Assembly (NCBI GenBank): GCA_965602015.1
Contig: OZ271918.1
Span: 1,152,001 to 1,216,000, forward strand
Reading direction: 5' to 3'
Source: Salinispira sp.
Lineage (GTDB): Bacteria > Spirochaetota > Spirochaetia > DSM-27196 > Salinispiraceae
Length of the DNA stretch: 64,000 bases
This document shows, piece by piece, positions 58,331-64,000 of the stretch. The first letter of the stretch is position 1, and each line of letters starts with the position of its first letter. Below the pieces are notes generated by a model, which searched no databases, had not been told where the DNA came from, and worked only from the letters and a program-made list of their open reading frames with translations. The position numbers were made by a program, and so were the translations under genes.

Positions 58331-61276
58331 ATGTACTATCTTAGTATAGATATTCAGCATTTTTCACAGTTTGCCATTGTTGAACCTGATGCCTCCGCAG
58401 CCCTGCTGAAGGATCTTCATGGGCACTGTTCGCGCTACGGAATGAAGCCCTATCCAGGCTCCGACGGCCTGCTGTTCTACCATCCGAATCTAGGCGCTGG
58501 GGAGTATGCTCCGCTCTTAAAGGTCATGTTTGCCCTGGAATCCCGCTTGAAAGATTTCGATGAAGATATCCCGGGCTTTAGCATAATTCTAGAAGCCTTG
58601 GAGAACTCCGAGCCTTCCCTTCATGACATCATCGGCCTGCGGCTGAGTATCAGAGAGCGGGTCGGCATGTACCTCGGGCCAAATGCGGAAAAATTGATCT
58701 CCCGCTTTCTCATCGGAGAATCCTTTCGCGGCCTGTGGAAAATTCTGGCACGGAAACGGAAGGACGATGAAAATCTCGGCACCGCCTCTGAATTTGTCCT
58801 GCGCCGGGAGTTTACCGAATCGGTATTTAATGCCATAGAACCCTGGATGAACGGCGAAGCTCCCCCAGGGGTTGTTTGTATTTCCGGACAGGAAATGGAC
58901 GGAGTACATTTGGCAGCCCGGGGACTTATCCATCGCCTGAGTTCAACCGAAGCCCTGGGACGCATACCATTTATTCTGATCAGCGAGAGACAGGATTTTC
59001 TGTTTTCCCTCATGCAGGCGGTTCTCATACAGCAAAGCCTGTGGGTCCCGGAATACCTATGCGAATGGGAGTCTGCAGTCTGGACAATGAAGCGCGATTG
59101 CCTTACGCGTTTTCACTCCAGGGCGACGGACCGGGGAATGCGCAATGAGCTTCTGCCCGAGTCAGCGGATTCCGATACCCTGGTGGCATTTTCCTTGTAT
59201 CTAAAGGCCTACGCCCGTTGGAGCCGGGAGAACGGAAATCTGCCGATGGTAGCGGTGCACCTCGAGAGAGGTCTGAGCGATTGGGAGCAGCAGTATTTCG
59301 TCCGGCTGATGCAGGACAAGGATAGTCGGCTGGTTTGGCTGTTTTCCGGCGAACACGAGTACCTGGAAATCAAGGATCTACCCCTTGCTCGTGCCGACTT
59401 CACGCTGAATCGCTATACTGAACATGACATACAGCAGCTGCTTGATAGGCAGGAGGACCAACGCCCGGGAGCGAACCCCGGGTACCTGCATTCCTCGGCG
59501 GGCGGGTGCGCCCTTCCCATATACTTTTTCCTCAGCGACTACGAGTACTTTGCCCAAATCCTGCCCAGCCGCCTGAGAAACTACGGCAACAGCAGCATAG
59601 AGTCACAAGAGGGGATCGTCCAACGCTTTATCGATCGATTGGAATTCGAGACCAGGGAACTGTTATACACCCTCGCTTTGGCAGGGGATTTTCTGGACAA
59701 GGAGCAACTCTTCCGATTTATGGAAGTCCGCGGCCGTCTTCGAATCCGCATCACCCAAATGTACAAGGATCTCCAGTCCCGGGGCCTGCTACTATTCGAA
59801 CAGCTCAACCATGTGCCCTTCAGGGACATCATACTTCGGATGGCCTATGCCCTCGGCGATGTGCGCACGAGCATTATAACCCAGCTGGTAGAGTACATGT
59901 GTGACGATGCCTCGGATTTTCAGGCCCACCCCGGAGCCCTGATTTTTGTCGGTAAATACGGCAGAACCGCCGGGCAGCTTATTTGGTGCTACCGCAAGAT
60001 ACAGGACATGATCGACAGCTCCAACATCGATTTGGCGCAGGGGCTGGTCGCCAAACTCCCGTCTCTTCCCCAGAGTAAAAAAGCCGAGGAACTACTGGGC
60101 TATCACATTGCTCTCCACGAAGGTACCTCGGGCCCTGCCCCCATAAATCCCGAGAAATTCGAGAACGGATTTTGGTATGCCGAATCGCTGCTTATCGCCG
60201 CCCGCCAGATGCTGAACCAAGGGGATATAGATCAAGCCAGATTGATGGCGAAGCGGGCGATTATTGAATATCAGCAACTTGATGACAGACGCGGCCTGGC
60301 GGCATCGAATATCCTCTTTGGCTTTCTTCTTTTAAAAAACGGAAAACATCAGGATGCCAGCCACTACTTCTCCATCGCAGAGAGAAGCCAGTCCCGGTTT
60401 AATCTGAGCCGCATACAGTCGATTATGCTGCCTTGCCTGAGCGATTTTACCCAGGGCAAGTACAGCAGGGTGCGGCAGCTCCTTGAGGGAAGTGACGGCC
60501 TGATAAGCGTACTGTACCGCTACGGCAGCCGCTCCTGGTCTGCAGCAGCCTCCTTTATTTTGGCCCGATGCTACTTCGCCATGGGATTGTTCAGTGAGTC
60601 ATATGAACTCCTGTCACGGGAAATGAATACCCTGCAGGGTGAGCGCTTACGCAACGTGCGGAGAATTTTTTACAGCTGGATGGCGAGAAATCTGGTATAC
60701 ACGAAAAACCTGGAAGCCGGGCTGGCTCTCCTTGAGAATCAGCCGAACAGTGGGGAAGCCATGGTTTTTTTAGCAGAAGCAATGATTCTTGCAAACAGAT
60801 ATGAAGAAGCCCTGGAAATCCTGTCAAATCCGGTTTCCCACAGTAAACACAGCCTAAGTATCGGACAGCTGTTACCCTGGGGCAGCGGATTCTCCTGGCT
60901 TGAGGATTTATACATCAATGATGTGGAAGAGCAGGGGGTGCTGAGCAATTACGCCTATGGTTTGTGGTGCTTCGCCTTAGGAAATCTGGGCAGTTTCGAG
61001 CAAAGCATTGAAGGATTCCACTGGCTTACCCGGGAGAAAAAGCTTCCGGAAAGCGACCCTCACATCAGCGTAATTCTCTACTGGTACTCCCTCATAATAG
61101 AAAAGGCTAATGACAGCGAAAACGAGGACAGATTGACCCTCCTCGGCAGGGCCGTCAAGGCCTTGCAGGAACGCTCAAGCAGGATCGAGGAGCCGGCAGA
61201 CAAGCGCGAGTACCTGAAGAATGTGGTGTGGAACCGGGAGCTTCTGGAAAAGGCAAAGCGCTTTAATCTGGTCTGA
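58331..61276 (+). CDS. Large hypothetical protein, degenerate cyclase-like/STAND-NTPase-like N-terminus and TPR-like C-terminus
   Basis: YLSIDIQHFS; VVCISGQEMDG at a P-loop-like position; AGGCALPI; helical repeats; ALQERSSRIEEPADKREYL..WNRELL. Confidence 0.6.
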   Translation: MYYLSIDIQHFSQFAIVEPDASAALLKDLHGHCSRYGMKPYPGSDGLLFYHPNLGAGEYAPLLKVMFALESRLKDFDEDIPGFSIILEALENSEPSLHDIIGLRLSIRERVGMYLGPNAEKLISRFLIGESFRGLWKILARKRKDDENLGTASEFVLRREFTESVFNAIEPWMNGEAPPGVVCISGQEMDGVHLAARGLIHRLSSTEALGRIPFILISERQDFLFSLMQAVLIQQSLWVPEYLCEWESAVWTMKRDCLTRFHSRATDRGMRNELLPESADSDTLVAFSLYLKAYARWSRENGNLPMVAVHLERGLSDWEQQYFVRLMQDKDSRLVWLFSGEHEYLEIKDLPLARADFTLNRYTEHDIQQLLDRQEDQRPGANPGYLHSSAGGCALPIYFFLSDYEYFAQILPSRLRNYGNSSIESQEGIVQRFIDRLEFETRELLYTLALAGDFLDKEQLFRFMEVRGRLRIRITQMYKDLQSRGLLLFEQLNHVPFRDIILRMAYALGDVRTSIITQLVEYMCDDASDFQAHPGALIFVGKYGRTAGQLIWCYRKIQDMIDSSNIDLAQGLVAKLPSLPQSKKAEELLGYHIALHEGTSGPAPINPEKFENGFWYAESLLIAARQMLNQGDIDQARLMAKRAIIEYQQLDDRRGLAASNILFGFLLLKNGKHQDASHYFSIAERSQSRFNLSRIQSIMLPCLSDFTQGKYSRVRQLLEGSDGLISVLYRYGSRSWSAAASFILARCYFAMGLFSESYELLSREMNTLQGERLRNVRRIFYSWMARNLVYTKNLEAGLALLENQPNSGEAMVFLAEAMILANRYEEALEILSNPVSHSKHSLSIGQLLPWGSGFSWLEDLYINDVEEQGVLSNYAYGLWCFALGNLGSFEQSIEGFHWLTREKKLPESDPHISVILYWYSLIIEKANDSENEDRLTLLGRAVKALQERSSRIEEPADKREYLKNVVWNRELLEKAKRFNLV

Positions 61277-61344: not shown

Positions 61345-61361
61345 CCGGTCTTGTAAAAAAT

Positions 61362-61434
61362 GGTGGCGTAGCTCAGTTGGTAGAGCAAACGGCTCATATC
61401 CGTTCGGTCAGGGGTTCAAGTCCCTTCGCCACTA
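61362..61434 (+). tRNA. tRNA-Met (CAT), probably elongator; CCA not encoded
   Basis: Acceptor GGTGGCG/CGCCACT, D arm GCTC/GAGC, anticodon stem AACGG/CCGTT with CAT at 61395-61397, T arm AGGGG-TTCAAGT-CCCTT. Confidence 0.93.
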
Positions 61435-61438
61435 TCGG

Positions 61439-61477
61439 CCCGGTGTAATCCTTGGAGATGACGCCGGGTTTTTTTTT
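61439..61477 (+). terminator. Intrinsic terminator after tRNA
   Basis: CCCGGTGT...ACGCCGGG stem followed by T9. Confidence 0.85.
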
Positions 61478-61560
61478 ATTAAGTGATGGTATGAAAGCGG
61501 TGCCTCCCCCGAGATCCTGCCAGTCAGGGTCTATATTAAATACCGGAGGAGGACAACCAA

Positions 61561-62613
61561 ATGAGTAGTATTATTATATCCCTCGACAGCCATAAACGGT
61601 ATACCGTGGCTGCAATTGAGGACGAAAAAGGAAGGAAATCCTCACAGCGCATAGAACATTCTCACGGGTGTATTCGTGATTTTCTCCAACAATTTGAGCC
61701 GGGACAGGAAGTCGCACTTGAAACAATCGGAAGTTGGTACTGGATTGTGGATGAGATTGAGGAGGCCGGCATGAACCCCTTGCTGGTACATGCCGGTAAG
61801 TCAAAATTGATGATGGCCATGTTTAACAAAACTGACAAACTCGATGCTGAAGGTCTCAATAAACTTCAAAAAGCAGGCACACTGCCTACTGTGTGGATTC
61901 CACCAGGAGAATTGCGTGATAAACGAGAACTCTATCGAACCCGGATGCAGTTCGTTCAGGAGTTGATACGTGAAAAGAACCAAATTCATGCCGGGTTCGA
62001 GAAATATGGGTTTCGATTCAATGATGTGAGCGATCTGTTCGGAAAAGCAGGTACAGAAGCCATGAAGAAGGTAATGCCAAAACTCCCCGAGCATACCCGC
62101 ACCATGATGAAACTCAAGCTCGATAATCTCGCGTTTATTAAGCAATCTATCACCGACTGCGAACAACGAATGCATGAAGCGTTTGATGAAAATGCTGAAA
62201 TGAAGTTGGTGAAATCCATTCCCGGGATCGGATTTATTCTCAGCGCAGTCATTGTGCATGAAATTGGAGACATACATCGCTTTAAGACCGCTGAACATTT
62301 TGCATCATACTGTGGTACAACGCCGCGCGTTCACTCGAGCGGAGGTAAAACTCATTATGGTCGAACATCGAAAGCATGTAATCGATACTTGAAGTGGGCA
62401 CTTACTGAAGCAGCTAATGTAACCTGTCTTAATCAAAGAAATTGGGCGAACCGACATACGGTAAAACTCTACAAGAGAGTTCGTACTAAACGTAATCATA
62501 AGGTTGCAATAATCGCCGTGGCACGGCACTTAGCAGAAGCAATATTTTGGATATTGCAGAAAGAACAGCATTACAAAGATCCTGCATTAGCGGGTTTGTC
62601 CAGACAGGGGTAA
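61561..62613 (+). CDS. IS110-family DEDD transposase/recombinase
   Basis: SLDSHK (D), VALET (E), KTDKLDA (D,D), SIPGIG, FASYCGTTPRVHSSGG (catalytic Ser loop), AVARHL; GGAGG RBS. Confidence 0.95.
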   Translation: MSSIIISLDSHKRYTVAAIEDEKGRKSSQRIEHSHGCIRDFLQQFEPGQEVALETIGSWYWIVDEIEEAGMNPLLVHAGKSKLMMAMFNKTDKLDAEGLNKLQKAGTLPTVWIPPGELRDKRELYRTRMQFVQELIREKNQIHAGFEKYGFRFNDVSDLFGKAGTEAMKKVMPKLPEHTRTMMKLKLDNLAFIKQSITDCEQRMHEAFDENAEMKLVKSIPGIGFILSAVIVHEIGDIHRFKTAEHFASYCGTTPRVHSSGGKTHYGRTSKACNRYLKWALTEAANVTCLNQRNWANRHTVKLYKRVRTKRNHKVAIIAVARHLAEAIFWILQKEQHYKDPALAGLSRQG

Positions 62614-62735
62614 GCGCGTTTTTGGGGCTACAGCGCGAATACGAGGCTGTGCAAAGTGATTGCGACACCCCTGGAAGGACATTTTCATGCCACGTGGATG
62701 GCGGAGATATGACTCGGACAAAACCGATTTGCAGA
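62598..62735 (+). ncRNA. Putative bridge/seek RNA in the IS right end (boundaries approximate)
   Basis: Stems CAGGGG/CCCCTG and ACAGC/GCTGT flank segments matching the target; downstream segments match the donor junction (see findings). Confidence 0.75.
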
Positions 62736-62872
62736 ATTTTTGTAATAGAACATTGAAAACTCTTGCGGGGAGGCACCGCTTTCAGATATGCCCCCAAAAC
62801 AGCTGATCGAATCAACATAACTCTTTTGCCAGTAGTCTTCTATGACACGATTCCCGCTCATAGGAGATTGCC

Positions 62873-64000
62873 ATGGCGTTTCACCCCCGTTTCTGTCCGT
62901 ACTCGGACTGCTCTCAGCATCATCGCGACAGAGAATCAAGCCGGTGCTGGTTTGTCCGAAACGGTCACTATCACTGCCGCCGCCTCGGTTCTTCCCAGCG
63001 CTATCGCTGTAAGCATTGCCGTCGATACTTCTGCGAAAGCGCGTTTCACCTCGATTATCGCGCACATCATCGCCTCGATTACCGGCGCATCTTTTCTTCG
63101 ATCAACTCGGCTTCTGGCATCCGCGACATTGCCCGGGAGTTTTATGTCACCGACAAGGTCATTCTCAATCGATTGAGTCGCCTGTCCCGTCAGGCGATCG
63201 CTGCCATGGCCCAGTTATTGAGCGATCATACAATCGATGAGGATATTGCCGTTGATGGGTTTGAAAGCTTTGTGTACAGCCAATACTGGCCGAACAACTT
63301 CACCCTCGCGGTGGGTTCCGACAGCCAGGTTGTCTATGCCTGCGACTATGCGCAGATGCGGCGCAAAGGGCGGATGACCCCCGCACAAAAGCGCCGGCGC
63401 GATGAGCTCAATCGCCGGTATCCTATTGCAGGGGGACAAATTGCGCGATCTTTCCGTGATGTGATAAACACCATTCTTCCCAGGTGGAGGGCTTATTCAT
63501 CGAAGAAGCCATGCTATCTCTTGAGCGATGAAAAACTCGAATACCGCCGTGAGCTGTTCGCTCACCGGGACTGGGCGGCGTTGGAAAATGCAGGGCGGGT
63601 GATCCATCACCGAACCTCATCGAGGGTGGTCAGGACCACTGAGAACCCCCTGTTTCCGGTGAATTACCTGGATCGGGAGATACGAAAGGATCAATCCTGT
63701 CATGTCCGCCAGAGTGTCCAGTGGTCAAAATCGGTGAACAACAGCATGGAGCGGATGATGATTTACATCGCCTATCATAACCTGCTCAAGCCGTATCGGA
63801 TAAACGGACGAAACGATATCAGCCATGGTGAGGTTGCGGGGTTTGACCGAAAGCGGGTACTCACGTTGGCAAAAAGGATGTTTACACAGCGGGCCTTCGT
63901 TCATCATCTGGTGCTGGACATCAGCCAATGGAAGACCTGGCACCGGATCTGGAAGACACCGGTGAGTGCGCTGAAGATCGATCTTCCCGATTATGCGGTG
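62873..64000 (+). CDS. IS1-like transposase (zinc ribbon + HTH + DDE-type), runs off window end
   Basis: Not in ORF track. AGGAG RBS; MAFHPRFCPYSDC...QRYRCKHCRRYF, GIRDIAREF..TDKVILNR, AVDGFESF, LLSDEK, NPLFPVNYLDREIRKD, YHNLLKP; open to 64000. Confidence 0.75.
   Translation, partial: MAFHPRFCPYSDCSQHHRDRESSRCWFVRNGHYHCRRLGSSQRYRCKHCRRYFCESAFHLDYRAHHRLDYRRIFSSINSASGIRDIAREFYVTDKVILNRLSRLSRQAIAAMAQLLSDHTIDEDIAVDGFESFVYSQYWPNNFTLAVGSDSQVVYACDYAQMRRKGRMTPAQKRRRDELNRRYPIAGGQIARSFRDVINTILPRWRAYSSKKPCYLLSDEKLEYRRELFAHRDWAALENAGRVIHHRTSSRVVRTTENPLFPVNYLDREIRKDQSCHVRQSVQWSKSVNNSMERMMIYIAYHNLLKPYRINGRNDISHGEVAGFDRKRVLTLAKRMFTQRAFVHHLVLDISQWKTWHRIWKTPVSALKIDLPDYAV

Follow-up and report, generated by a model that had tools for sequence, protein, structure and literature searches.

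A predicted four-guide bridge/seek RNA in an IS110-family element found in the end repeats of IS1-like elements and MITEs of Salinispira sp.

A mobile element that carries a long non-coding end downstream of its recombinase gene raises the question of how its landing sites are chosen, and whether an RNA encoded in that end could choose them. The window analysed here, a stretch of 64,000 nucleotides from Salinispira sp., contains such an element close to its right-hand border. The initial annotation of this DNA had proposed an intact IS110-family element with a TG core, four guides and a downstream bridge/seek-type RNA, and ten copies with one target together with covariation among homologues bear out this prediction. 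Very probably, the four guides belong to a bridge/seek RNA that sends the recombinase to the end repeats of both IS1-like elements and miniature elements (MITEs).

The element is 1,305 bp long, intact, and laid out like IS1111, with subterminal repeats and with 175 bp of non-coding DNA downstream of the recombinase gene against 75 bp upstream. It spans 61486-62788 and is flanked by TG at 61484-61485 and 62789-62790, which represents the duplicated core (Table 1). The spacer between the repeats at a joined junction would be 12 bp (4+2+6), and the subterminal repeats are perfect over at least 9 bp in 71 of 82 elements of the clade. The recombinase scores 226.8 bits against NF033542 (cut-off 140) and combines an N-terminal DEDD RuvC-like domain with a C-terminal Tnp domain bearing the SG motif; residues D9, E54, D92, D95 and S260-G261 are all present. 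Its stop codon falls within the outer stem of the predicted RNA. Directly upstream of the insertion (61361-61478) lies a tRNA-Met followed by a hairpin and a T run, which would insulate the element from read-through. Further upstream, 58331-61276 encodes a 981-aa protein with TPR-type matches confined to its C-terminal part, the N-terminal 600 aa being without a Pfam match.

Table 1. Features of the element, its predicted RNA and its target site (window coordinates)
Feature	Coordinates	Strand	Evidence
Left target half TTAAG and left copy of the TG core	61479..61485	+	AG-TG in 10/10 copies
Left terminal extension ATGGTA, right half of the donor junction	61486..61491	+	covaries with RDG in homologues
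Left subterminal inverted repeat, 18 bp	61492..61509	+	perfect match to 62767-62784
IS110-family DEDD recombinase, 350 aa	61561..62613	+	PF01548, PF02371, NF033542
Predicted bridge/seek RNA scaffold	62598..62735	+	fold z -3.04; compensatory changes in consensus pairs
Right target guide (RTG), complementary to G-CCCC-N-AAAA	62619..62628	+	covariation
Left target guide (LTG) CAAAG-TG	62652..62658	+	AG-TG alone matched by every insertion
Right donor guide (RDG), covarying register against TG-ATGGT	62681..62687	+	covariation in 82 elements
Left donor guide (LDG) GATA-TG, equal to right tip and core	62706..62711	+	327/328 positions match in 82 elements
Right subterminal inverted repeat, 18 bp	62767..62784	+	pairs with left repeat
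Right terminal extension GATA and right copy of the TG core	62785..62790	+	read from element end and copies
Remainder of target, left end repeat TGCCCCCAAAACAGCTGAT of IS1-like element	62789..62807	+	126 matches in G000
Transposase of IS1-like host element, running past the window end	62873..64000	+	12 full-length copies in G000

Ten copies with 98.9-100% identity are present in the source genome (G000), and all four guides are unchanged in every one of them. The right flank reads CCCC(C/G)AAAAC in eight copies, CCCCTAAGC in one and GCATATAAC in one; the last of these marks the inner junction within a tandem duplication, leaving nine independent sites. All nine lie in AG-TG-CCCC-N-AA, in line with the expectation of the initial annotation that other copies would occupy related sites, and all share a single orientation and a short common core with no further duplication. 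The rebuilt target that it had derived by removing the element, TTAAG-TG-CCCCCAAAAC, occurs empty at G000:1392641. AAGTG, its left match, holds as AGTG in all ten copies, the remaining A not being common to all. The preferred target which it named, AAGTGCCCCAAAAAC, has to be replaced by the motif above, as neither this string nor the other guide-perfect targets AAAGTGCCCCAAAAA and AGTGCCCCAAAAA has any match in G000.

Several copies have histories of their own. The tandem duplication (G000:C1:3399670-3402533) comprises the element and about 255 bp of upstream host DNA, and at its inner junction the right tip meets a TG of the chromosome that bears no relation to the target. This fits one-sided half-match recombination, events of which are described in the accessible text of 10.64898/2026.08.14.744561 and 10.64898/2026.08.31.748434. 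Another copy (G000:C1:1706985-1709279) has been interrupted by a further insertion sequence of about 1.3 kb and is missing some of its 5' region; its host is a 110-bp MITE of a second IS1-like family, in whose end it lies. The copies at G000:C1:1234164 and 644930 carry the same one-base change in the right subterminal repeat, which suggests that one was copied from the other. No circle joint was detected in contigs from four runs of one sample, contigs being prone to drop rare forms. No strong promoter was found at the circle junction built in silico; a sigma-70-like match of 8/12 was no better than two matches located off the junction. The element was not found in the congeners G001 (83% complete) and G002 (99%), and proteins about 50% identical occur in 3 of 60 other relatives.

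The initial annotation overlooked that other mobile elements carry this target as their end repeat. The right flank begins a repeat, TGCCCCSAAAACAGCTGAT, whose matches in G000 listed in Table 1 were counted at no more than two mismatches. It forms inverted pairs around elements of 1,247 bp, MITE-like units of 133-145 bp and palindromes of 42-47 bp, and also occurs as solo ends. The copy in the window interrupts the left end of its IS1-like neighbour, a 1,247-bp element starting right after it. The filled sites consist of seven end repeats of this family (family A), one truncated family-A-like end and one MITE end of the second family (family B), whose ends read TGCCCCNAAGCTTGTT, whose transposase is 34% identical and in which the copy at G000:1709279 lies. 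G000 contains 73 empty occurrences of AGTGCCCCNAA, always in the end repeats of the two families (66 in family A and 7 in family B), and all 65 occurrences of AGTGCCCCNAAAA there belong to family A. Base U62623 of the RTG faces a variable base of the repeat, and with U at this guide position the filled sites include C, G and T variants. Across the clade this position is often mismatched (68% match), and no selection for it is claimed. Among family-A ends, AG precedes the core in 7/7 filled against 68/119 empty ones, a weak difference (Fisher p = 0.04).

The host elements deserve a description in their own right. The transposase encoded from 62873 onward reaches 34.8 bits against NF033558, below the cut-off of 100, and has weak matches to DDE/integrase-type folds (TM 0.2-0.3), PF03400 as atlas neighbour, spirochaete-rich relatives and no Pfam model for its family. 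Members of the IS1 family combine a zinc finger and a DDE transposase with terminal repeats and make target duplications of 8-9 bp. The IS1-like family here lacks a clean duplication: of 39 pairs, only 5 show a near-exact one of 9 bp, at offset 5, and even between IS1-like copies of 95-99% identity the five bases outside TGCCCC differ. A reading of the repeat as a REP/RAYT system was rejected, the linked protein, present in 12 copies, being DDE-like and not an HUH enzyme. At G000:C1:2757300-2760735, a full element of the second family is interrupted by a 2.2-kb two-ORF element, which has three further identical copies in G000 and whose layout we take to resemble that of IS21. IS1-like relatives whose ends begin with TGC(C/A)CC exist in both congeners (L188-L194), and G001 holds 63 family-A repeats without the IS110 element having been found there.

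Since every insertion lies in the end of a mobile element and insertions occupy only 9 of the more than 80 sites with the motif, the site might instead be chosen by a protein or by DNA structure, such as the IS1-like transposase bound to its ends or a MITE hairpin, with the RNA match being secondary. A preprint on ISPpu10 (10.64898/2026.03.19.712850) reportedly concerns structure-assisted targeting, going by its title. We regard this explanation as highly improbable. The motif is confined to these ends in G000, so that sequence alone accounts for the pattern; insertions are found in solo ends, in MITE ends, at either end of full elements and in the second family; and relatives with other guides have other flanks, amounting to 50 distinct 3+3-mers in 73 elements.

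The evidence in favour of RNA guidance begins with the predicted RNA itself. Rfam offered no family over it; tRNA-Met alone passed, and two matches stayed below threshold. Folding of the right end, which the initial annotation had suggested as a check, gave z = -3.04 over 62598-62760, with 1 of 200 shuffles equally good. The stems that it had described are present, namely an outer one (CAGGGG 62605-62610 with CCCCTG 62668-62673) and an inner one (ACAGC 62630-62634 with GCTGT 62646-62650), but what directly closes the target loop is a nearly invariant stem, CGCG/TGCG (62615-62618 with 62661-62664), each pair of which is kept in 82/82 elements. Because this stem takes G62618, that base belongs to the scaffold, and the 10/11 complementarity reported between GTTTTTGGGGC (62618-62628) and the right flank is real with the guide limited to 62619-62628. 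A consensus fold of 82 sequences, in which the window's own row is poorly aligned in the inner hairpin, contains 20 pairs, 17 of them with compensatory changes, and leaves all four guides unpaired. The guides follow the order RTG, LTG, RDG, LDG, the RTG at 62619 preceding the LTG at 62652, with the top-strand match 5' of the bottom-strand one. Across the insertions, the LTG finds a match at 2-4 of its 5 positions, and no clear selection was seen at its positions -5 to -3 among the insertion sites in G000. The bases after RTG and RDG are a near-invariant TG, and no covarying handshake guides are evident there.

All strings quoted in the initial annotation stand where it placed them, the others being AAGTG at 62654-62658, TTTCATGCCA at 62683-62692 and AGATATGA at 62705-62712. 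Could such matches arise by chance? Of 5,000 dinucleotide shuffles made from 62598-62735, 21, 537, 8 and 15 reached the four matches singly, and the 537 cases, which concern the 5-nt left match, show that this one alone is easily obtained. The four together were never reached, and covariation refutes the idea; we consider its probability negligible.

For the covariation analysis, homologous elements were collected through an alignment of 60 homologues, used in two alignment-based searches of genome contigs from which the best 80 loci each were taken; a search with the single protein had given no match. With three loci from relatives and the window copy, these 160 made 164 loci, of which 125 have both ends and a shared core (TG in 124), 30 have no detectable repeat pair and 9 no shared core. 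Removal of redundancy at 90% and of short flanks left 84 elements. Of these, 82 were placed by their scaffold motifs, without recourse to the flanks (L134 and L142 were left out), giving a non-redundant set with 45-56% protein identity to the query, and 73 of the 84 served for the counts of registers and flank diversity. About a quarter of the homologues (L016-L171) have targets resembling GCAA/GGAA/AGAA-TG-AC, often after CTC, which may be other host repeat families; L043 and L051 lie after tRNA-like ends.

All four guides covary with their partners in the 82 elements, in the kind of comparison that the initial annotation had proposed. Own matches amount to 346/410 for the LTG (permutation mean 134, maximum 172), 387/492 for the RTG (mean 163, maximum 204), 327/328 for the LDG (mean 267, maximum 284) and 299/410 for the RDG (mean 223, maximum 247), and none of 10,000 permutations reached the observed value for any guide. 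In 41 tree-independent pairs, own matches exceeded cross matches by 32:1 for the LTG, 30:4 for the RTG, 5:0 for the LDG and 11:0 to 13:0 for the RDG, independent changes being few for the donor guides, with 6 and 13 informative positions. Since the guide segments match the landing site and the element ends and covary with them, the RNA likely steers the element into the end repeats of other elements. As for the claim that the system is reprogrammable, covarying guides and differing flanks point to natural reprogramming among relatives, and it stands in that sense only.

The donor side requires closer consideration. The identity of AGATATGA with the circle junction is well founded, as the LDG within it follows the changes of the right tip among GATA, GAGA, TACA and TAGA. 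The RDG of this element is degenerate, having four Watson-Crick pairs, two G-U pairs and one mismatch; TCA (62685-62687) faces the core TG and the first base of the left end, and pairing continues upstream. At the place where each of the other 17 elements with an ATGG left end retains one C or more, this guide has U-U. The initial annotation had placed this guide elsewhere, pairing TTTCATGCCA with TGGTATGAAA. That 9/10 match, with one wobble, is real (15 of the 5,000 shuffles), and a register shifted into the left subterminal repeat would suit an element in which the canonical one is weak. Such a register is very unlikely, however: it appears in 1 of 73 elements, the other 72 scoring 3-7; about six of its matches are accounted for by scaffold and end bases that do not vary; GCCA, one half of it, takes part in a stem whose pairs are each preserved in 79-82 of 82 sequences and which would have to open; and it leaves out the TG core. 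The match is probably a coincidence peculiar to this element, and the covarying register is that of Table 1.

A further possibility is that the target loop alone (about 62600-62675) acts as a processed short RNA, the ends being recognised through the subterminal repeats and the donor matches being dispensable here. An 82-nt seekRNA with target matches alone supported movement of ISEc11, according to the accessible text of PMC11187229; the subterminal repeats here are long, and ten near-identical copies exist despite the degenerate RDG. We nevertheless consider it unlikely, as the LDG matches the right tip almost without exception and tracks its changes, the RDG covaries in tree-independent pairs with none contrary, and the donor-side stem is conserved.

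By analogy with IS621 and ISEc11, the four-guide RNA would work as follows. The element would form a circle joined as GATA-TG-ATGGTA, and the RNA would be transcribed with the recombinase mRNA, through the gene, and bound by the protein. Its target loop would open AG-TG-CCCC-N-AA by pairing with both strands while the donor loop holds the circle junction, and strand exchange at TG would yield insertion in one orientation without extra duplication. The repeat offers more than 70 empty landing sites outside host genes, and the case shows a mobile element that makes its home in the ends of a second one.

The locus provides a natural example with defined ends, core and four guide registers, accompanied by dozens of natural guide-target pairs, which makes it a candidate TG-core programmable recombinase and suits it to asking whether an RNA in the IS1111 layout needs its donor loop. 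The recombinase is 23-24% identical to the IS4321/IS5075 proteins, is distant from IS621 and has a best plasmid match of 31.7%. In an unrooted tree of 18 proteins with no named IS110-group outgroup, this clade stands apart from IS4321/IS5075 and two IS1111-like proteins (100/100), L184 being presumably one of the IS1111-like kind. From the sequence data, the element is best described as an IS110-family member that would work like an IS1111-type seek/bridge system. The downstream non-coding region, subterminal repeats (18 bp against the usual 11-13 bp) and top-strand-first order of strict IS1111 elements are all found, but their terminal extensions are 7 (or 6) bp on the left and 3 bp on the right. 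Strict IS1111 membership is therefore not granted, because the spacer is 12 bp rather than 10 and the protein clade is separate in the unrooted tree.

It is conceivable, though rather doubtful, that these elements form a widespread bridge-recombinase clade without a named ISfinder member, which reached the IS1111 layout separately, kept a full covarying donor loop and was retargeted here to the most conserved bases that two IS1-like families have in common. If so, nature would have supplied a compact, already reprogrammed system with a TG core for testing whether downstream 'seek' RNAs also bridge the donor. In the accessible table of the bridge RNA paper, rows that resemble this recombinase by eye bear no ISfinder name, and no end or scaffold motif of the clade was found in the readable parts of its supplements. 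A search for publications on the clade, extending to sources other than subscription papers and bioRxiv supplements, returned none. To find donor covariation in such a layout has some value, since a 2026 review (PMC13604230, accessible part) still separates target-only seekRNA from two-loop bridge RNA; donor pairing for IS1111 elements had already been predicted by Durrant et al., as far as that text was available.

Both the mechanism, described in 2024, and the targeting of repeats are already published for IS621, ISEc11, IS4321 and IS1111 in QMITE2. IS4321 and IS5075 reportedly target the terminal repeats of the Tn21 family (Partridge and Hall), and the IS4321-type locus L180 adjoins a Tn3-family transposase gene. 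The present element resembles them as an IS1111-type element within the terminal repeat of another mobile element, and differs in that its target is an IS1-like/MITE end and its circle spacer 12 bp against their 10. Going by the available text of PMC11187229, it shares with the seekRNA systems of ISEc11, ISKpn4, ISPa11 and ISPst6 the downstream non-coding region, the subterminal repeats, the leading top-strand match (the IS1111 guide order), a single target and orientation, and natural reprogramming among relatives. Unlike them, its donor guides covary, whereas the short seekRNA needs none; its spacer of 4+2+6 contrasts with their 7+3, and its recombinase sits on a distant branch. In comparison with the IS621 bridge RNA, as presented in the accessible part of PMC11208160, four guides, a shared 2-bp core, target and donor loops and a DEDD plus serine recombinase (phmmer E 1.7e-11) are shared. 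However, the RNA lies downstream instead of upstream, the guide order is reversed, the core is TG instead of CT, long subterminal repeats are present and no handshake guides are evident. A parallel in habitat is IS1111 of Coxiella burnetii, 20 of whose 21 copies lie in QMITE2 according to the accessible text of PMC5896051. In both cases nearly all copies occupy one MITE family, while in Salinispira the autonomous parent of the MITEs is present and itself hit, and two related families are used.
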